From Rhizaria sp. SCN 62-66 (Eukaryota): 34,272 nucleotides of DNA. Within the stretch, counting starts at the first letter, position 1; each line of letters starts with the position of its first letter. Of the stretch, positions 1 through 32,956 are shown piece after piece. Made by a program: the position numbers and the translations under genes. The notes under the pieces are model-generated. The model did not search any database, was not told where the DNA came from, and saw only the letters and a list, made by a program, of their open reading frames with translations. The stretch lies in contig MEDY01000324.1 of assembly GCA_001724265.1 (NCBI GenBank), forward strand, positions 1-34,272, read 5' to 3'.

Positions 1-1
1 C

Positions 2-163
2 GGCAAGGCTGCCTCCGGCAACATCCGCTTCGCCGTCCAGGCCCTCGAGGCCGCCAAGCTCATCGGCAAGAAGGAGGGCCGCACCGGCCGCTTCATCACC
101 GCCGCCGGCCGCCGCGAGCTCGACGTCATCGCCACCACCATGGCCAAGGCTGCTCGCGCGTAA
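2..163 (+). CDS. RPS19: 40S ribosomal protein eS19 (S19), 3' end; gene starts before the window
   Basis: Frame 2 reads GKAASGNIRFAVQALEAAKLIGKKEGRTGRFITAAGRRELDVIATTMAKAARA* (TAA 161-163), matching the eS19 C-terminal pattern SGxIxRxxLQxLE...GRxITxxGxRxLDxIA. Strong C-ending codon bias. Confidence 0.9.
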   Translation, partial: GKAASGNIRFAVQALEAAKLIGKKEGRTGRFITAAGRRELDVIATTMAKAARA

Positions 164-874
164 GCACGCTAGCGAGCGCACGAACAAGCAAGCAAGCAGC
201 ACGCAGCGTCGTCGCCGCCCGCCGTGTCCGTTACTCCCCGGACGCGGTGCGCGGCGGCGCGCTCCTGGATGATGGCAACGACTGCTGCAGCGGCTGAGCC
301 GCGTGCACTGTGGCTCCGAAGCCGCCGTCGCGCTGGCGTCGTGTTGTCGCAATCGTTGTCCTCAGCTTCGCAACTGCAGACGCAACACTCACACACATTG
401 AGTGTTGCGACTGCGGTGAGTAGTCTTTGTCTCTGTTTCTGTCCTGTCACAACATGACAGGCAAGTCAGCAACACATCTTCATTCCCCACCGACCTTCCT
501 CTCGCCCGCGGCCGTCACAAAGCGACCGCGGGAGGGACCCTTGAATACAAGCCATACTTAAAATCAAGCTTTCTTTACTCCACGTCTCGCTCTCAAACTG
601 TCATTCACCTGAGGCGCGCATCGCTCTGCTCACGGTCACTGAAACGAAGATTCACTGTTGAAAAGGAGGCGCTAGTAAATCATGACGATATCTAAGTTGA
701 TGCCCAACATAAGATTATGTATCGAAGAAATTAATTGTGACTAAGTTGAATTTATCAGCGTTTCAAGTTTTATGCTCAGTTATGCCATATCGAACGACTG
801 GTCAACCCTTTATTGGGCAATTGTATTGTTTTCGTGGCAACTTGAATACCAATTCCTGTCATAGGTATTGCTGC

Positions 875-1750
875 ATGTCATCAATTGCCAACCCAGCAGT
901 ACGTACTAATGCATCAAGCTTTAGAGAATTCTTGAAGAATGCCCCGTATTTTTTTTACAAATTACACAAATGAGTAAAACTATTAAGATAAATTGCATGT
1001 ACGATGCAGCCACGTGGCCGTCACACTCTCGAATCACTGCCCACTTAAACACATATATCGATGAAACCGACATGCTGCGGAATTGAAGTTTATCTCCGAC
1101 AATTAATTATATTCGATGATTTTACACCTGCGTCTCGTTGCGATTCAATGCGATTATAGAGCACTAACACCGCAGCCCCGATCCCCACTGCTTCGTCCAG
1201 TAAGCTCGCGGCCCTGACGACCTTCACCCCCACGACCGAGGCCGAGTTCCACGCCGCCATCACAATCACCGCAAAGCCGGCCCGCGTGCGGACCGCACTG
1301 CTCTCGGCCATGGAGGTGCCGCTGAACGTGCGCGAGCGCGTGCACAAGCCGTGCTCCGCCGAGCGCGCCTGGTCGGCGACGGGCGTGCCCTTCATGCGCT
1401 GGGTCACGGGGACGCGCTACTGCGGGCCCGGCACCGACATCGCCGCTATGGACCGGCTTGGTGGGCCGCGCAACCGGCTTGACTGTCTCTGCCGCGCACA
1501 CGATGTCGAGTACGACGCGATCTCGACACGCGTGCGCAAAGGAGAGCTCACTGCTGGCGCGGCGCAGCGGCTGACGCTGGCGAGCGACAAGCGGCTCGTG
1601 ACGCGCATCAGGGACCTAATGCGCATGGGCGATCCGCAGGTCTCGGCGGAGCTGCTGGCCGTGGTGATCTGGTGCATGCGCGTCAAGGTGCTGTACGAGG
1701 AGCTGCGCAAGTGCGGCAATGACTGCGCAAGCTGCTGCACTATCATGTAA
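875..1750 (+). CDS. Phospholipase A2-like protein (PLA2X/parvoviral VP1u-type motif) with C-terminal CaaX box; exons 875-898 and 1160-1750, ~204 aa
   Basis: Ca-loop YCGPGT and catalytic NRLDCLCRAHDVEY, with a downstream SDKRL helix. The frame is open from 1160. ATG875-MSSIANPA is followed by a phase-0 GTACGT donor (899), with a TAG acceptor at 1157-1159. Ends CASCCTIM*. The 5' exon is less certain than the domain. Confidence 0.75.
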
Positions 1751-2688: not shown

Positions 2689-3073
2689 TCAGTTGTGAGT
2701 CTGGCCGCCGATCTGGACGGCGGGGACCGAGGTGGGGGGCTGGAGCGGGTTGTAGTTAAGCAGCTTGTCGATGAGGTCGACGTGCGCCAGCAGCATGCGG
2801 CGGCAGCAGTAGCGGTTAAGGCCCAGCGCGGTCATCGCGGAGCTGTGCGGTGCAGAGAAATAAAGAAAGACACAAGAGATAGTGGGGCAAATGTGAGCAC
2901 AACAGAGAGGGCATGGCGTTGCACTACGGGCGAGAGAACAGAGAGTAGAAATGAATGTCGGGATGAGGGATAACATACCCCTCAGTGTGGTTGGAAGCAA
3001 TGAGCTCAAGGTAGCGCTCGTACTTGTTGCCGGTGACCTTGCCGCAGGTGAAGCAGCGAACGGGGATGATCAT
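2689..3073 (-). CDS. RPB10: RNA polymerase I/II/III shared subunit RPB10 (RPABC5); exons 3073-2979 and 2842-2689, 82 aa
   Basis: [25 protein letters not shown]...[34 protein letters not shown] contains the CxxC and YCCRRM zinc signature. A GTATGT...CAG phase-2 intron restores the frame. Confidence 0.97.
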
Positions 3074-5377: not shown

Positions 5378-7915
5378 ATGGGCCAGGAGATTAGCATGCA
5401 GGCGAACACGCCCTTCACCATCGCGGGCCGTCAGGTCCAGATGGTGCGCAAGATTGCCGAGGGCGGCTACTCGTTCGTCTACTTGGTCGAGGACGTCGAC
5501 CGCCGCGGGACCTACTACGCGCTTAAGCGCTGCGTCACGGGCGACGCCGCGCAGGAGGACCTCGTTCGCAAGGAAATCGACGTCATGACCGCGCTCTGCA
5601 CGCCCAATAACCCGTACTTGGTGCCGTTTTACGGCTTCCTGAAGCGTCCGCCGACGGAGCGCGGCGGCGCGAGCGAATACTGCCTGCTGATGGAGTATTG
5701 CTCCAAGGGCAGCGTGATCCACGAGATGCAGGCCGTGATGGACCAGCGCAAGCGGCTGCATGAGACCAAGACGTTTGTCATCTGGGACGCGGCGCTGCGC
5801 GGCGTGCGCAGCTTGCACGAGGCCAGCCCGCCCGTAGCGCACCGCGACATCAAGGTCGAGAACATCCTCCTCGCCGACGACGGCAAGTACAAGCTCTGCG
5901 ACTTCGGTTCCTGCGTGCACGAAGTGGTGACCGTGGGCAACTCGTCGGCGCTGCACCTGGAGCAGGAGCGCATCCAGCGCCACTCGACGGAGATGTACCG
6001 GGCGCCCGAAATGTGCGACCTCTACCGCGCGCGCTCCAACAACTGGCCCATCGGCGAAAAGGTCGACATCTGGGCCCTGGGCTGCGTGCTGTTTATGCTG
6101 ACGCACTTCCGCCACCCTTTCGAGGACGGCGGCGTGCTGGGTATCCTCTCGGGCAAGCTCGAGATCCCTGTCCGCAGCGGCTACTCTAAGTACGCCAACT
6201 ACCTCATCTCGCGCTGCTTCACCATGGACCCGCGCCAGCGGCCGTCGGCGGCGGAGCTTAGTGAGATCACGCAGTCCTGGCGCGTGTTCCTCGCCACCAA
6301 GGGGCAGCGCCACGGCAGCGACGTTATCGCCGCCGACGTCGAGGCGCTTGTGCCCGGCGTCATTTGCGCCGCCGCGAGCTCCAGCAGCAACTCGAACGCG
6401 TCGTTCAGTGCTAACAACAACAGCAACGCCAACGCCGCCGCCCCCAAGCCCGCCGCGCGCCCGGTGCCCAGGCCCGTCGCTCAGCCGCAGCAGCAGCAGC
6501 AGCAGCAGGCTGCCGGGGGCGCGGACGCCGCGTTCGACGTCGAGTGGAGCGACGACGACAACGACACGGCAGCCGCCGCCGCCGCCAAGCCTGCGCAGAA
6601 GACGCTCGCCCCGCCACGCTCCGCCGCCTCCGCGGCCGCCGCTCCCTCGACGCCCTCGCAGAGCTTCAACGCCGGCGCGGCGGGAGCCAACGCGAGTTTC
6701 GGCGCCGGGGCTAGCTTCGGCTCCCCGACCGCGAGCATGAACCTGCCCGGCGCCAACTCGGGCCGCTCGCGGCTGCGCGCGCAACACCAGCAGCAGGTCC
6801 TGGGCACGCCCTCCGCCTCCTTCTCGCAAAACAATAACAACAATCACAGTGGCGCGGCCCACGGCGCGTTCGGCGGCGCGAGCGCGGCCGTTGAACCGCC
6901 CGCGCTGTTGCCGCAACCCTCGGCCGGCGGCGGGTCGAGCGTGTTCGACATCCTGCACGTCGACGAGTTCACGCGCAACACCACGACGATGCACCACAGC
7001 AACAACAGTGGCAGTGGTAACGGCGGCAACGGTGCTGCCAACGGCGACGACGGCTGGGGCGCGTTCTACGCCGCCGGCTTCGGCGACTTTGCCTCTGCCA
7101 ACGCAAACGCAAACAACAACAACAATGGCATCGGCAGTAGCAGCGCTACTGGCGCTGGCGCTGGCACTGGTGCTGGTGGCGCGGGCCCGCCGTCTGGCCG
7201 CAGCTCGCCGGTGCCACAGCCGCCGAGCCGGACGGGCAGCGTGCAGTCGCAGCAGGCGCAGACCAACTCGCAACAGTTGCGGCAGCCCGCGCAGCCGCAG
7301 TCGCAGGCGCCCTCACAGCTCGTGCGCGCGTCCCCGGCCCCGTCGGGGTCCCCGGCGCCGTCGGTGGCGCTGGCCAACAACGCGCTCGCCAGCATCGGCG
7401 GCTCGCCTTTCACGGCCCCGCGCACGCTGCGTCGCCAGGAGTCGCACAACAGCGCCGCCTCGGTGCCCCACGCCGCGTCCAACGTCAACTCCAACGTGAG
7501 CGAGGCGGGCGACCTGGCCTCGCCGCTGCCGGGGGACGCCGGGGCCGCGGGCATTACCGTGAGCGTGAGCAGTGGGGGCGCGGTTTCGACCGCGCAGAGC
7601 CGCATGGCCGCACGCAACAGGATCTCTGCGTCCGCGGACCCCGGCGTGCTGAGCCGCGCGATGCAGGCGCACCACAACCAGCAGCATCAGCAGCAGCTGC
7701 AGGTGCCGAGCGCCGCGACAGGCCGGGCCGCGCTGGCGCACAGCCACAGCGCAAACTTCGGCTCGCACAGTGGCCATGGCCACGGCAACGGCGCGGCGGC
7801 GCTGGTGACGCACTCGGAGCCGTCGACGCCGAACCTGATCGATATCCTCAGCGCGCCGAGCCAGGCGCCGCCGCCGCAGCAGCAGGGCGTGCTCGACCTC
7901 AGTATGTTTAACTGA
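5378..7915 (+). CDS. NAK-family (AAK1/BIKE/GAK/Ark1-Prk1-like) Ser/Thr protein kinase, 845 aa, single exon
   Basis: IAEGGYSFVYLV, YALKR, LLMEYC, PPVAHRDIKVENILL, YKLCDFGS, TEMYRAPEMCDLY, IGEKVDIWALGC are NAK-type kinase motifs, followed by a long low-complexity tail. Confidence 0.93.
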   Translation: MGQEISMQANTPFTIAGRQVQMVRKIAEGGYSFVYLVEDVDRRGTYYALKRCVTGDAAQEDLVRKEIDVMTALCTPNNPYLVPFYGFLKRPPTERGGASEYCLLMEYCSKGSVIHEMQAVMDQRKRLHETKTFVIWDAALRGVRSLHEASPPVAHRDIKVENILLADDGKYKLCDFGSCVHEVVTVGNSSALHLEQERIQRHSTEMYRAPEMCDLYRARSNNWPIGEKVDIWALGCVLFMLTHFRHPFEDGGVLGILSGKLEIPVRSGYSKYANYLISRCFTMDPRQRPSAAELSEITQSWRVFLATKGQRHGSDVIAADVEALVPGVICAAASSSSNSNASFSANNNSNANAAAPKPAARPVPRPVAQPQQQQQQQAAGGADAAFDVEWSDDDNDTAAAAAAKPAQKTLAPPRSAASAAAAPSTPSQSFNAGAAGANASFGAGASFGSPTASMNLPGANSGRSRLRAQHQQQVLGTPSASFSQNNNNNHSGAAHGAFGGASAAVEPPALLPQPSAGGGSSVFDILHVDEFTRNTTTMHHSNNSGSGNGGNGAANGDDGWGAFYAAGFGDFASANANANNNNNGIGSSSATGAGAGTGAGGAGPPSGRSSPVPQPPSRTGSVQSQQAQTNSQQLRQPAQPQSQAPSQLVRASPAPSGSPAPSVALANNALASIGGSPFTAPRTLRRQESHNSAASVPHAASNVNSNVSEAGDLASPLPGDAGAAGITVSVSSGGAVSTAQSRMAARNRISASADPGVLSRAMQAHHNQQHQQQLQVPSAATGRAALAHSHSANFGSHSGHGHGNGAAALVTHSEPSTPNLIDILSAPSQAPPPQQQGVLDLSMFN

Positions 7916-8765
7916 TGACACTGCCAAACTGCGATCGAGTGAATCGCACGTGAAGCTTGAATAATAAGAAAACGTTTTGTTTGATTATTTGATAACACGT
8001 GTTCTTTATTTGTTTTATTAACAATATCATTAGCTTGTAGATCTTGCGACTGTTCTGATTCTGCTTATCCCTGCACCAAGTGTTACACACCAATTCAGCA
8101 TTTACTCGCTTGAGAACCCGTCGCAGATTGGTCTCACCCACTGACACCGACACAGGTTTGCTCTCAATTATCATACACACTGCACTATTTCTCTTCGTCT
8201 TCGTTTCCTAACTCGGCCGAACTCACTGTCATGGGTGACCGTGAGTGGGTGCATATTCTAAAGCTGTTTATCTCAATCTCAACATCTTGACTCGATGTAG
8301 AATTAATCAAAGATATATAAATTGACATGGATTATATAGACATCAATGTACATTTCCTATAGTGCTTCATCACATCTGAGGTTTGGGAGGCGAGGCCCAT
8401 GCCTGTTTACAACGCAATCGAACGCGCCCGGAAGCGTCGTTACACGCGTGAGCTCTAGCCAGCAAATGCCATGTATGCCACTATCTTTCCCCACAGCCCG
8501 GCCTTTGCCGATGCGGCCGCTCGATTAGAGGCGCAATCCATCAGCTTCGGCGCGGCCTACCGCGTCATAATTGCAGTTTGGCTACAGTTGGAGTCACGTT
8601 CTGACAACTGTCGATATCGCTTGTGAGGCCGGAAAGAAGCACAACTGCATCCATAGCAGCCGCTCAGACTGACTGTGTTGCGTCACTTGCAAGGAGATGT
8701 ACTCGGGTGCTCGTGTATACGTAGCTCGGATCGTGCACCTTGCATGCTGGGTTTTGTAGGAGTAA

Positions 8766-8812
8766 TATGTGTCGAAAGATGTGTGAAAAACACTCATGTG
8801 TGAAAACACTCA
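8766..8812. repeat. Imperfect short tandem repeat ATGTGTGAAAA(A)CACTC x2 plus a degenerate upstream copy
   Basis: ATGTGTCGAAAG ATGTGTGAAAAACACTC ATGTGTGAAAACACTC read directly. Confidence 0.7.
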
Positions 8813-9472
8813 GGGCGAAATGTACACAAGTGTTTAAGTCTAAGATGTCTTCATCGCAAAAATAAATAAGCTAAATGTCGCCTACGCGAGTAAGCATGTT
8901 CGTTCGAGTACATTAGTACCTGGGACTCATGCGCATTGCAACGTCATGTCAACAGAAGGTTTAAATGAAGAATAAAACATGTTTTTAAGTTCCAGCGTAT
9001 GACCCGGTCCCGGTCATTCGATCTTGTGTTACCGACAGCTACCCGCTAGAAACCGGTGAATCTAAAGTGGTGTATCATGTCATGTAGCATGGTGAAGCAA
9101 GATGCTGTTGTTTCAACGTAGCGAGTGTGTTTTGAATCAAACACTTTGAAAATATTGTGAGTGTATAACGACCCTAGTCTTACTCAAAACTAAATAATCA
9201 CATAATGTACTTGTAGTACAGTACAACTACACAAATGAACAAACACACAACATTCATGTCAACAAACAGATTCGTACTCGCTTTCGTCGAGGTCCAAATC
9301 TCTGTTGCAGCAGACACTGCGGCCTGCCAGTACGGCCAAGGCCTTCACTTAAACCGTCACTTGAAAGCGGTTTATGCTAATTCTGTAACACTTGACTCGT
9401 GCAGATCCGGAAGTACTGTCCGTTTGTTACCTATTTGTTCGTTGTTGCTTGTTCACCGAGATACTCTTACTG

Positions 9473-15635: not shown

Positions 15636-16615
15636 ATGGGAGGCCGTCTGTCATAGCAAGAGCGCCTTAAGATCCGCGAACTCGTCGCACCGGCCGCACT
15701 GTCTTAAATATTGCAAACGAACTTAAAGTCTCGGAGTCAAGCGTTCGGCGTTACCTTTGCCCCGGCCAGCCTGTGAAAGATCGTCGTCCTGTGCGGGGCC
15801 AGGGGCGCAAGCACCTCGTCCCGAACGAGCGCTTAGACGAGTTCGCCGCCATCGTGCTCCGCGAGCGCGCGCTCCCCGACACCGAGAAGCACAAGGTTGT
15901 GATGCGGGAGATGAGGATTAAGCTCTCTTTCGCCGTCTTCCGCACCGCGTGCAAGCGCGCGAAGGTCCGCCAGCGCGACCCCGCCTTAGTGCTGCGGCGT
16001 ACAACGCGCGGCCGGCGCCGCATGGCGTTCGCGCGCAAGTACCGTGCGCACGACTGGGACAGGACCATCTTCACCGGCGAGCGGGTCTTTGGCATCGGCT
16101 ACCGCGGGTACGGCGTTCACTACCGCGTTGGCGAGCGACCCACAATGGCGGATCTCGGCTGGCCCGAGGTCGGCCCCAGCGTTGCCGTGTGGTGGGGCGT
16201 CTGCAAGACGCGGCGCCTCGTCCCCGTCGTGTACGCACCGCCGCTCACCAGCGCGAGCTACACTGCGGTTCTTGAGCGCGGCCTTTCCGGGCCTGCGCTG
16301 GGCGGCTACGTGCTGCAGCACGCCAACGCGCGGGACCACACCGCGGCCGAGACGCAGCGCTACCTCAAGCGCCGCCGCATAGCCACGCTGCCCGCCTGGC
16401 CCTCGGGCTCGGGCAACCTGAGCCCCCTCGAGCCGGCGTGGGCGCAAATCTCCGACGCGGTGTCCACGGAGCAGCCGCAGACGGAGACCGCGCTCAAGCG
16501 GGTCGTGCTGCGCAAGATCGGTGAGTTCGACCAGGAGCGCGTGGCCGAGCTGGTGGACGCGCTGCCCGCGCGGCTGAGCGCGGTGCGGCGCAAACGGAAC
16601 GCGCCGGGGCAGTGA
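15636..16615 (+). mobile_element. IS630/Tc1-mariner (DDE_3)-type transposase remnant or domesticated derivative; catalytic DD35E changed to G-A-35-E; 5' stop and frameshift
   Basis: N-terminal HTH GRTVLNIANELKVSESSVRRYL; RRMAFARKY..DWDRTIFTGE, VAVWWGV, LTSASYTAVLE, YVLQHANARDHTA, WPSGSGNLSPLEPAW, LVDALPARLSAV follow Tc1 motif order. ATG15636 hits TAG at 15654 and needs a -1 shift near 15683. No terminal inverted repeats found by eye. Confidence 0.85.
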
Positions 16616-30710: not shown

Positions 30711-32956
30711 CTGAGAGGGAAAAGATGCAAAACACACAAAAACAAATCAAAATAATCAGAATAAATATTCGTAGAATGTGGAAGAAACATATCGGTTTTC
30801 GCTACAACGTCAAAGAAACGTCGCTGATTGATTAAAATTATAAAACAGTACAAATCAAGACAATTATTTTGACTCGCGTCATGTGTCGCGAATGCGTACC
30901 TGTGAGAGCGCGGCCTTGGCGAGGACGTCCTCGGCGTCGGCGGCGTCGGCGCGCACGAGCAGCGAGCTGCCGGTCATGGCGGCGGGCTGCTCCACGCCCA
31001 TAAGCGCGAGCACCGACGGCGCGACGTCCTGGAGCCCACCGCCCGCGCGCAGCGCCACGAAGTGCGCCGCGGCCGCGGGCGTGAGCTGCGCGTAGAAGGG
31101 CACCGGGTGGATCGTGTGCGCCGTGTGGGGCTCGCCCGTCGCGGCGTTGCGCATCTGCTCGCAGTTGCCGTGGTCCGCGGTGAGCATCAGCGAGTAGCCC
31201 TCTTTGGCGCAGGCGGCGGCGATGCGCGCGACGGCCGCGTCCGTGGCGGCGGCCGCAGCGGTCGCGGCGGGCAGCATGATGGTGTGGCCGACCATGTCTG
31301 GCGGCGCAAAGTTGCACACGACAAAGTCGTACTTCTGCAGCGCGAGCGCGGTCTCGACCGAGGTAGCGACGCCCGCGGCCGACATCTCGGGCTGCAGGTC
31401 GTAGGTCGCGACCTTGGGCGAGGAAACGAGCCCGCGGTCCTCACCTGCGAAGTCCTGCTCGATGCCGCCGTTGAAGAAAAATGTCACGTGCGCGTACTTC
31501 TCCGTCTCGGCCGTATGGAACTGCTTGAGTCCGCGCTTAGAGAGCCACTCCGAGAGCCCGTCGCGCATGTTGTTGGGCGGGAAGACCGTGGGGAGCGTGA
31601 ACTTGGAGTCGTAGCACGTGAATTGCGCGACCGTGAGCCCCGCGCGCTTGACGCACGGCGCGCGCCCGGGCTTGTCGAAGGGGTAGACGCCCATGCCGAC
31701 CACGGAGGCGATCTCGCGCATGCGGTCCGCGCGGAAGTCGAAGAAGAGCACGGCGTCCTCGTCGCGGAGGCAGCCTGCGGGCGGCGCGTCGGCCGCCGCG
31801 CCGTGCGCCACACAGACGGGCGTAAAGAACTCGTCGTTCTCGCCGGAGGCGTACTTGGCCTGCACCGCGGCAGCCAGCGCGGCCGAGTCGGCGACCACGG
31901 TCGCGCCCGCGCCGCTCACGAGCGCGTTGTACGCGACCTCGATGCTGAGCAATGGACAGAAATATTTAGTATTATATCGGTGAGGGACATCGTGGGAAAC
32001 AAAACAAAGGATTGGCGTGTAAGATATAACAATATGAACTAGTTGAGCTCGATTAATCACTATTTTTGAGGCTAAATCTGCATGAAAGACAGTTCAAGAC
32101 GACGTACCGCTCCCAGCGCTTGTCGCGGTCCATAGCGTAGTAGCGGCCGACGACGGTGGCGACCTTGCCGTAGCCGATCTCGGCCATGAAGGCCTCGATC
32201 TGCGCCAGGTAGCCGGCGGCCGAGGTGGGCGCCGTGTCGCGGCCGTCGGCGAAGAAGTGGAGGAAGCACTCGGGCACCTGCTGCGCCTGCGCGACGAGCA
32301 GCAGCTGCTTCAGGTGGTCGATGTGCGCGTGCACGCCGCCGTCGCTGACGAGTCCCATGAGGTGCAGGCGGCCCGTCGCGGCCTTGGCCGACTCGCACAG
32401 CGCAAGCAGGCGCGGGTTCTTAGCGAAGGAGCCGTCGGCGATGGCCGCGTTGATGCGCTCCAGGTCCTGTGCAGAGGAGCAACGTGGTGTACAATGCAGG
32501 GGGGTAATGAGGATAGCAGGTGATGAGTATTAATAGTTATTAGCACAGCACACAAATTAGCGGCAAAAAGGATATATCATCTGGTTTTCATTAAAAGGTG
32601 AGTAACTGTGTCAATGACATGCGATATAAGCACTGAAATCTATGTTGCCATGCAATCAATGATCTCACACCATCTGAGTCGTGAGCAAGACGGCGCATTG
32701 TGCGTGTGAGGGGACGTGCCTGAAAGTCGATGCGTCCCGCGCCGATGGTGAGGTGGCCGACCTCGCTGTTGCCCATGATGCCGTCGGGCAGCCCCACGGC
32801 TAGCCCGTGCGCCTGGACCGTGGTGGCGAGGCTGCGCTCGGCCAGCGCCGTCATGCCGGGCGTAGGGGCGCAGAAGTTGGCGTTGGACTCGGAGGGCGTG
32901 GTGACGCCCCAGCCGTCCAGCACAATCAGGCAGACCTTGTTCTCCACCGTCGCCAT
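30030..32956 (-). CDS. gpmI: 2,3-BPG-independent phosphoglycerate mutase (iPGM) with a predicted spliced C-terminal ankyrin-repeat domain; exons 32956-32720, 32466-32108, 31944-30900, 30710-30030, ~773 aa
   Basis: LIVLDGWG, MGNSEVGH (phospho-Ser), SDGGVH, DGRD, GRYYAMDRD, FRADR, AETEKYAHVTFFFNGG, SPKVATYDLQPEMS, NFAPPDMVGHT, TADHGN, HTAHT are all intact. The iPGM call is certain; the join to the ankyrin exon is inferred from a phase-0 GTACGC...CAG intron. Confidence 0.9.

Follow-up and report, generated by a model that had tools for sequence, protein, structure and literature searches.

A His-Asp phospholipase A2 gene of virus-type affinity with a predicted prenylation tail in a protist genome

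Described phospholipases A2 and the protein of the window

Phospholipases A2 (PLA2s) with a His-Asp mechanism are known as secreted, disulfide-rich enzymes or as entry domains of virions, and the only prenylated PLA2 that we found in print is cPLA2-gamma, the fold of which is unrelated. In the literature searched, mostly outside subscription journals, there was no report of a prenylated His-Asp PLA2, nor any on a host gene of a protist that goes back to a viral enzyme of this kind. Parvoviral PLA2s are described by the motifs YxGxG, DxxxxxHD and HDxxY (PMC3626588; PMC7765992; PMC12455919), while secreted His-Asp PLA2s are stated to need millimolar Ca2+ and many disulfides, group XIII being listed without disulfides (PMC9505059). 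Captured viral genes have also been considered as a source of cellular enzymes, as venom PLA2s were speculated to derive from a captured PLA2X gene (PMC8502044).

The window, that is, the whole stretch of DNA analysed here, is the entire 34,272-nt contig C324 of a eukaryotic assembly (34.9 Mb in 714 contigs). In its translation, the motif GTRYCGPGT-x10-PRNRLDCLCRAHDVEY...SDKRL and the C-terminal tail KCGNDCASCCTIM, followed by the stop codon, share one open frame of 196 residues (Table 1; residue numbers are counted along exon 2), as had been read from the bare sequence. The His-Asp pair is likewise intact: the Y87-G91 loop, D108, H114, D115, Y118, and D143 are all present, and the Gly and Pro of the loop as well as D108, H114, D115, Y118, and D143 are invariant in 20/20 aligned rows. 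At the sequence level, the catalytic motifs are thus intact.

Table 1. Coordinates of the PLA2 gene, its parts and neighbours in the window, and of the virophage loci elsewhere in the genome
Feature	Position	Strand	Remarks
RPS19 3' end, upstream neighbour	1..163	+	PF01090
Putative exon 1	875..898	+	8 codons, MSSIANPA; ATG and phase-0 GTACGT donor; one of three single-intron candidates
Putative spliceosomal intron, 261 nt	899..1159	+	GTACGT...TAG, GC 0.38, 4 in-frame stops; inferred
Exon 2, 196 codons and stop	1160..1750	+	host codon usage; polyA-library contig 1190-1686, 0 differences
N-terminal extension	1160..1387	+	Ala/Thr-rich; no signal peptide; GC3s 0.84 before Met51; no homolog found
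His-Asp PLA2 domain, PF08398 (group XIII-like) type	1388..1708	+	Ca-loop and three long helices
Ca2+-binding loop motif YCGPG (YxGxG)	1418..1432	+	motif match; definition as given in PMC3626588
Catalytic HDxxY (H114, D115, Y118)	1499..1513	+	invariant in 20/20 rows; motif as given in PMC7765992 and PMC3626588
Asp143, inferred partner of the catalytic His	1586..1588	+	column invariant (D93 in P0002); on long helix 2 of the predicted model
Cys-rich tail, CCTIM and stop	1709..1750	+	predicted CaaX Cys193; candidate palmitoylation Cys192 adjoining
RPB10, downstream neighbour	2689..3073	-	PF01194; spliced intron 2843-2978, joint in RNA runs X2 and X3
C344 virophage	L005:6400-9903	-	capsid gene 7073-8845 (strand given for capsid gene); repeat-rich end ~6480-6830; joined to host genes
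Degraded second virophage (C649)	L008:4900-7634		capsid 44% identical, 2 stops; possible minor-capsid ORF

The domain matches Pfam PF08398 with 30.4 bits (E 4.7e-7, gathering cut-off 23.9), and PHROGs and NCBIfam gave no family match. An AlphaFold2 model of residues 51-196 (mean pLDDT 76.6; 81-97 across the domain, low for 51-77) predicts a layout typical of PLA2s, with the Ca-loop and helices that would bear the HD pair and the distal Asp. The best fold matches in BFVD were a PLA2-like protein of an entomopoxvirus (E 5.5e-4) and structural proteins or PLA2s of densoviruses, and the ESM Atlas hits, viral PF08398 clusters at 0.83-0.86, fell below the 0.9 bar and serve as leads. Among solved structures, the best PLA2 was the rice group XI enzyme (2wg7/2wg9, Z 7.8-8.1, rmsd 3.4 over 92 aligned residues), a middling score, although at Z 7.8 it ranks second among 48,161 chains; Foldseek found no match in the PDB at E 0.001. 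No group III structure stood among the best 50 listed structure matches, which does not exclude them. The domain carries four cysteines (88, 109, 111, and 172), of which one pair only aligns with cysteines of the bee enzyme, this pair being invariant in 17/17 rows of alignment A1; a disulfide network is absent, as in PF08398 or group XIII-like viral PLA2s. The claimed lack of a signal peptide also held, as far as the inferred exon 1 goes: of the 11-residue hydropathy windows that begin within residues 1-35 of exon 2, the highest reaches 0.99, and the sole hydrophobic stretch is the last helix (approximately residues 160-179).

Compared with the PLA2s of Polinton-like viruses (PLVs) and virophages (PF08398), the window protein shares the YxGPG loop, D-x5-HD-x2-Y, the hydrophobic last helix, the best group profile, and a 29-residue spacing to the distal Asp that is in register with P0005 and P0043, whereas its gene has host codons, a probable intron, a CaaX tail, and no capsid or ATPase neighbours. 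HDxxY, YxGxG and few cysteines are also found in the VP1u PLA2s of parvoviruses and densoviruses (group XIII). Here the similarity is confined to the core: the window protein stands alone with a lipid-anchor-type tail, without capsid fusion, and its His-to-Asp spacing is 29 residues vs 22 in B19, as given in PMC3626588. Strict group XIII (VP1u) membership was rejected, the ORF ending at 1750 with no capsid domain or viral neighbour. With the adintovirus/Polinton PLA2X proteins, as described in PMC8502044, it has in common the PF08398 domain and a Pro just ahead of the Ca-loop, but it ends in CCTIM, gives 33.5 bits with the PLA2X profile, and shows no basic pX-like C-terminal extension in alignment A3, so that membership of PLA2X as defined there was rejected as well. 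Group III (bee venom) and group XI (rice) PLA2s share the His-Asp mechanism and fold; those enzymes are, by the account of PMC9505059, secreted and disulfide-rich, while the window protein lacks a signal peptide and most of the aligned cysteines. Hydropathy and Cys positions speak against the secreted class, again subject to the inferred exon 1. Human cPLA2-gamma (PLA2G4C) is a functional analogue in holding to membranes by a C-terminal CaaX farnesyl anchor, yet it is described as large and Ca2+-independent with a GXSXG lipase motif, and is related neither in sequence nor in mechanism (PMC5485470). Judged from its sequence, the window protein belongs to PF08398 and would work like a group XIII/PLV PLA2, and it is not a VP1u, PLA2X or classical secreted sPLA2.

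The C-terminal CTIM had been taken as a CaaX motif, and it does fit the rule, with a terminal Cys-a1-a2-X, an aliphatic a2, and X = Met. In Arabidopsis, according to PMC3017772, Met at position X leads to farnesylation, position a1 shows no selectivity and a2 must carry no charge, and CTIM is among the substrates. The pattern CC[TVAI][VI][MLI]-stop has 11 matches in the present genome, its reversed control 2; Met is the last residue in eight of these 11, all within GC3-rich frames. The exact CCTIM end also closes two host proteins, one of them a PRL/PTP4A phosphatase (E 3e-20), the other a GRK-like kinase (E 1e-89). Prenylation is known for PRLs and for some of the GRKs. Besides, the genome holds three prenyltransferase-beta loci, one of which is farnesyltransferase-beta-like (subunit assigned by eye). 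Together these data support a tail of the host prenylation type, as predicted from sequence. Among the homologs, a Cys at position -4 was found in 0 of 67 other stored proteins, some of them partial, and in 2 of 121 closed motif ORFs, neither of them CaaX-like. As a side observation, CC[TIV][IV]M-stop tails close at least eight host proteins (L244-L254), including the PRL phosphatase, two GRK/AGC-like kinases, and an ankyrin protein.

Gene model, neighbours and transcripts

Residues 1-50 of exon 2 contain no ATG but are coding-biased, with a GC3s of 0.84 in frame vs 0.54-0.64 in the other frames, and the gene thus likely requires a further exon on the 5' side. The codon signal of the putative exon 1 is weak (GC3s 0.29, 7 codons), and an in-frame ATG at 782 provides an alternative start that fits the same GTACGT donor at 899. 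The consensus GTACGT intron of the sequence-only reading thus stands in part: the donor is also used by a host iPGM intron, but the 898/1160 junction is absent from the RNA joints, of which only two are listed, both within RPB10. It appears very improbable that the gene model differs altogether, be it a 146-aa protein from Met51 without the intron or a protein with another 5' exon that possibly adds a targeting signal. The 146-aa version (P0002) is the call in databases, other ATG/donor pairs are available beside the weak exon 1, and no RNA contig crosses the junction; nevertheless, the polyA-library contig begins at 1190, within the biased stretch that lacks an ATG, and the PLA2 domain and the tail are the same under either model. 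The 5' structure may be more complex, as a TAG followed by GTATTG (window 856-874) just 5' of the ATG at 875 might serve as the acceptor for one more intron on that side. Elsewhere in the window, the first intron of the cofactor-independent phosphoglycerate mutase, iPGM (32591-32720, reverse strand) apparently begins with GC (CAG/GCACGT), by eye a GC-AG intron.

That the gene sits between RPS19 and RPB10 without viral neighbours was confirmed, as 0 of 14 other ORFs scanned in the window match a viral family at E 1e-4. The claimed host-like GC3 bias was likewise borne out: the GC3s of exon 2 is 0.87, vs 0.91-0.95 for host genes (6 genes) and 0.45-0.48 for virophage genes (2 genes), and the codon log-likelihood ratio favours host over virophage by +92.8 bits. 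A protein search found the PLA2 gene to be single-copy in the genome. An intronless 314-codon ORF at 15671-16615 (forward strand) resembles a Tc1/mariner transposase by eye and has no Pfam match at E 1e-4.

RNA evidence comes from contigs of four of the five listed runs, at a low depth of 2.5-4.4 and with DNA carry-over possible. The polyA-library contig covers most of exon 2, and the two runs with spliced RPB10 yielded further contigs at 1491-1672 and 1715-1918. Splicing at GTAAGC, which the sequence-only reading had raised as a different 3' end, was not seen: the contig 1715-1918 reads through ungapped, in a run that may contain DNA. The putative intron and the upstream region have no contig cover in runs X1-X3, which proves nothing, and a G>A change at 1562 in a single contig may be an error. 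In run X4, which also holds diverged RPS19 and RPB10 pieces, two contigs match up to 1699 and then stay in frame with 20/30 bases and 5/10 residues identical (by eye), keeping both cysteines of the upstream C-G-N-x-C; the compared stretch is 10 codons long and stops short of the last four residues. A related organism thus very likely has the gene with a Cys-rich pre-tail, as far as this short stretch tells. The PLA2 frame is a host gene, present in single copy, with host codons and without viral flanks, and it is transcribed according to the low-depth contigs.

Relatives, phylogenetic placement and rival origins

A phmmer search of 1.84 billion representatives (E<=1e-3) gave 18 hits, namely the protein itself, 16 proteins of PF08398 type, and one unrelated repeat protein. 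All 16 real relatives are of virus or endogenous-virus type at 36-47 bits, many labels being given by resemblance. Eleven of them resemble arthropod endogenous densovirus-type proteins (five are named from spider or springtail genomes), with short matches of approximately 40 residues at 50-67% identity, up to 67% over a 36-residue core; the other five resemble PLV/virophage or PLA2X proteins, and two of these are near full-domain matches. A profile search added 27 relatives, mostly PLA2X-like, and a scan with the motif pattern found 74 IMG/VR stretches. The motif can no longer serve as the viral hallmark for which it was taken: CGPG...DxxCxxHD also occurs in at least 120 bacterial or archaeal stretches, so that its presence by itself does not mark a protein as viral. 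A full-length ortholog was sought without success by a word-indexed protein search with exon 2 (only itself among 681 candidates), by short-fragment searches, and by an IMG/VR search with the protein. JGI metagenomes gave 0 matches to the 30-nt stretch of the relative and, with a GC-rich motif pattern, 26 loci, none of them a protist ortholog by translation. A search of the genome itself for PF00068 and PF04665 had no match, which does not show their absence. Some of the IMG/VR entries are of interest in themselves. L009, L017, L040, and L057 form a compact group of stand-alone PLA2s of 133-146 aa that are among the best full-domain matches to the window protein, the PLA2 gene of L009 coming after a 439-aa capsid-like ORF in a PLV-like genome, while L010-L016 (contigs of 2.3-3 kb) are small, probably circular DNA viruses with stand-alone PF08398-type PLA2s of approximately 118-150 aa.

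For the phylogeny, 199 motif domains were reduced to 98 representatives, of which 34 were dropped (2 spurious, 10 short, 22 near-redundant or damaged) and 2 re-added; the tree has 66 rows and 91 columns, and no group I, II, III or XI enzyme is among the rows. Viral labels are backed by genome context for L002, L009, L012, and the named arthropod entries, and by resemblance for the others. In the ML tree, the query falls in a 30-row set with 29 rows of eukaryotic-virus type (98/94, bootstrap not converged), and therein with nine rows labelled PLV/virophage (93/83, unstarred), on a long branch (1.23). Placement on 127 branches (LG+F+G4) put a RELL weight of 0.90 within the viral set; the stem of that set received 0.083 and the other branches 0.015. 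The virus-type affinity is thus well supported by these sequence comparisons, and this part of the earlier claim of viral origin stands. The nesting among viruses is less certain, since holding the 29 viral rows together without the query gave an lnL 3.44 higher (AU p 0.62). As to the donor class, the comparisons diverge: the best LG+F+G4 placements adjoin arthropod densovirus-like rows and not PLVs, whereas the PLV/virophage group profile (8 rows, three of them found via a profile containing the query) scores highest with 50.4 bits, vs 42.5 for Acidobacteriota, 38.4 for all bacteria, 33.5 for PLA2X-like, 30.2 for densovirus-like, 28.3 for Bacillota, 28.2 for small circular viruses, and 18.5 for Pseudomonadota. 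By full-domain match and host range, a PLV/virophage donor is favoured.

The second PF08398 hit of the genome is terminal on contig C344 and stands immediately 5' of a capsid gene that is Sputnik-V20-like (PF22031, 39.6 bits; PDB 3j26, E 2e-5). This virophage forms a lower-GC block with a repeat-rich end and is joined to GC-rich host genes. In the degraded second virophage, a remnant of the C-terminal part of a PLA2 ORF, without a recognisable catalytic motif, lies between the capsid and the possible minor-capsid ORF. Endogenous virophages are described as common in protists (PMC10120064), and the presence of one with a PLA2 gene in this host genome indicates that a donor class infects this lineage. 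In the literature searched we found no paper on a PLA2 in a virophage, and in IMG/VR no close relative of the resident virophage PLA2. The resident enzyme has the loop NFTGPG, lacks both motif cysteines, and is 30% identical to the query over 69 aa; direct descent from it, or a sister position to it, was rejected (dlnL 15.2, AU p 0.009). On a separate matter, the only 18S rRNA hit (L237, contig C706) spans 4.4 kb and is AT-rich; a number of its insertions are large and look like group I introns, and it may derive from some other organism of the assembly. No tandem polyubiquitin junction, at which a rhizarian insertion would show, was seen.

The same prenylated, cytosol-facing PLA2 could also have come from a bacterium, with a CGPG/HD domain of the Acidobacteria type, or from the stem lineage of the viral enzymes, a reading that we regard as rather unlikely. 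The motif is common in bacteria, the Acidobacteriota and all-bacteria profiles score next after PLV/virophage, and the AU test leaves four of the 70 bacterial or other branches standing, among them one Acidobacteria branch (p 0.105), and likewise the stem (dlnL 2.5, p 0.58), in line with the outside-viral tree. Nevertheless, the AU test rejects the remaining 66 of the 70 branches and their RELL weight is small; none of the 18 phmmer hits is of bacterial type, the best pairwise bacterial score is 37.4 bits vs 51.2 for an IMG/VR protein that came from an independent pattern scan, and most bacterial motif proteins bear extra CxC/CD cysteines (by eye) that are absent from the query. A group III-like sPLA2 of ancient eukaryotic descent, stripped of its signal peptide and most of its disulfides when it moved to the cytosol, is unlikely as well; the viral likeness would then be convergence through the loss of cysteines, or the viruses would have taken theirs from such genes. 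In favour of it, PF05826 (group III) also scores above its cut-off (24.5 bits vs 22), the alignment with the bee-venom PLA2 runs almost without gaps between the Ca-loop and the distal Asp, and PMC12455919 describes the folds of groups III and XIII as close relatives. Yet the bee enzyme reaches only 16.6 bits (E 0.048) against the scores of the virus-type hits, PF05826 cross-matches 5 of the 9 virus-type proteins scanned at 16-23 bits, no group III protein was among the phmmer hits at E 1e-3, and the HDxCP of the bee enzyme is replaced by HDxxY in the query, which retains a single pair of the aligned cysteines.

The gene might, finally, be what remains of an integrated virus, or a relic without catalytic activity, its CaaX-like end being incidental, or else it might encode a lipid-binding decoy. 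Degraded virophage DNA does occur elsewhere in the genome, RNA contigs are few and of low depth, and a full ortholog was not found in the searches; against these points stand wholly host-like codon usage, an intact frame with every catalytic residue, the absence of viral neighbours, a tail identical to host prenylation tails, and the frame and cysteines kept in a relative. We consider this explanation improbable.

Proposed origin and action of the enzyme

On balance, we favour the view that the window holds a host PLA2 gene that was captured long ago from a PLV or virophage, and whose product, predicted to be farnesylated and palmitoylated at CCTIM, would cut phospholipids from the cytosolic side. 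Capture from a virus, taken by itself, is fairly likely on the sequence evidence. A virion PLA2 gene would have entered the genome along with an integrating virus. There it would have shed the basic C-terminal part of the viral protein, acquired an intron as well as a CaaX tail, and been kept by selection. As group XIII enzymes lack disulfides, a viral-type domain would be pre-adapted to a reducing compartment, and the few disulfide cysteines of the window protein may allow folding in the cytosol. After cytosolic synthesis, Cys193 would be farnesylated, and Cys192 and perhaps Cys185 and Cys189 palmitoylated; the protein would then dock on the cytosolic leaflet, aided by its hydrophobic last helix, and hydrolyse phospholipids at the sn-2 position.

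Given the need of this enzyme class for high Ca2+, the enzyme would be near-silent at the resting Ca2+ level of the cytosol. It may act where Ca2+ floods in locally, for instance where the plasma membrane is wounded or a food or contractile vacuole leaks, and its products, lysolipid and fatty acid, would serve membrane remodelling. Such Ca2+-gated action at local influx is the weakest step of the proposal and we hold it to be doubtful. Only tentatively do we put forward the wider picture, in which the protist domesticated the membrane-penetration lipase of a virophage or PLV and flipped its topology, from a virion enzyme acting in the endosome lumen to a prenylated, Ca2+-gated enzyme of the cytosolic leaflet. 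Its sites might be food vacuoles or the membranes that incoming giant viruses use. A role against giant viruses would be conjecture.

Being small and easily expressed, the protein lends itself to direct tests of each step. A His-Asp PLA2 that is lipid-anchored and faces the cytosol would, if true, represent a new topology for this enzyme class. If the gene is virus-derived, it would be a rare instance in which one virion enzyme of the virophage/PLV world became a protist host gene, and would bear on the speculation, raised in PMC8502044, that cellular PLA2s come from captured viral genes.
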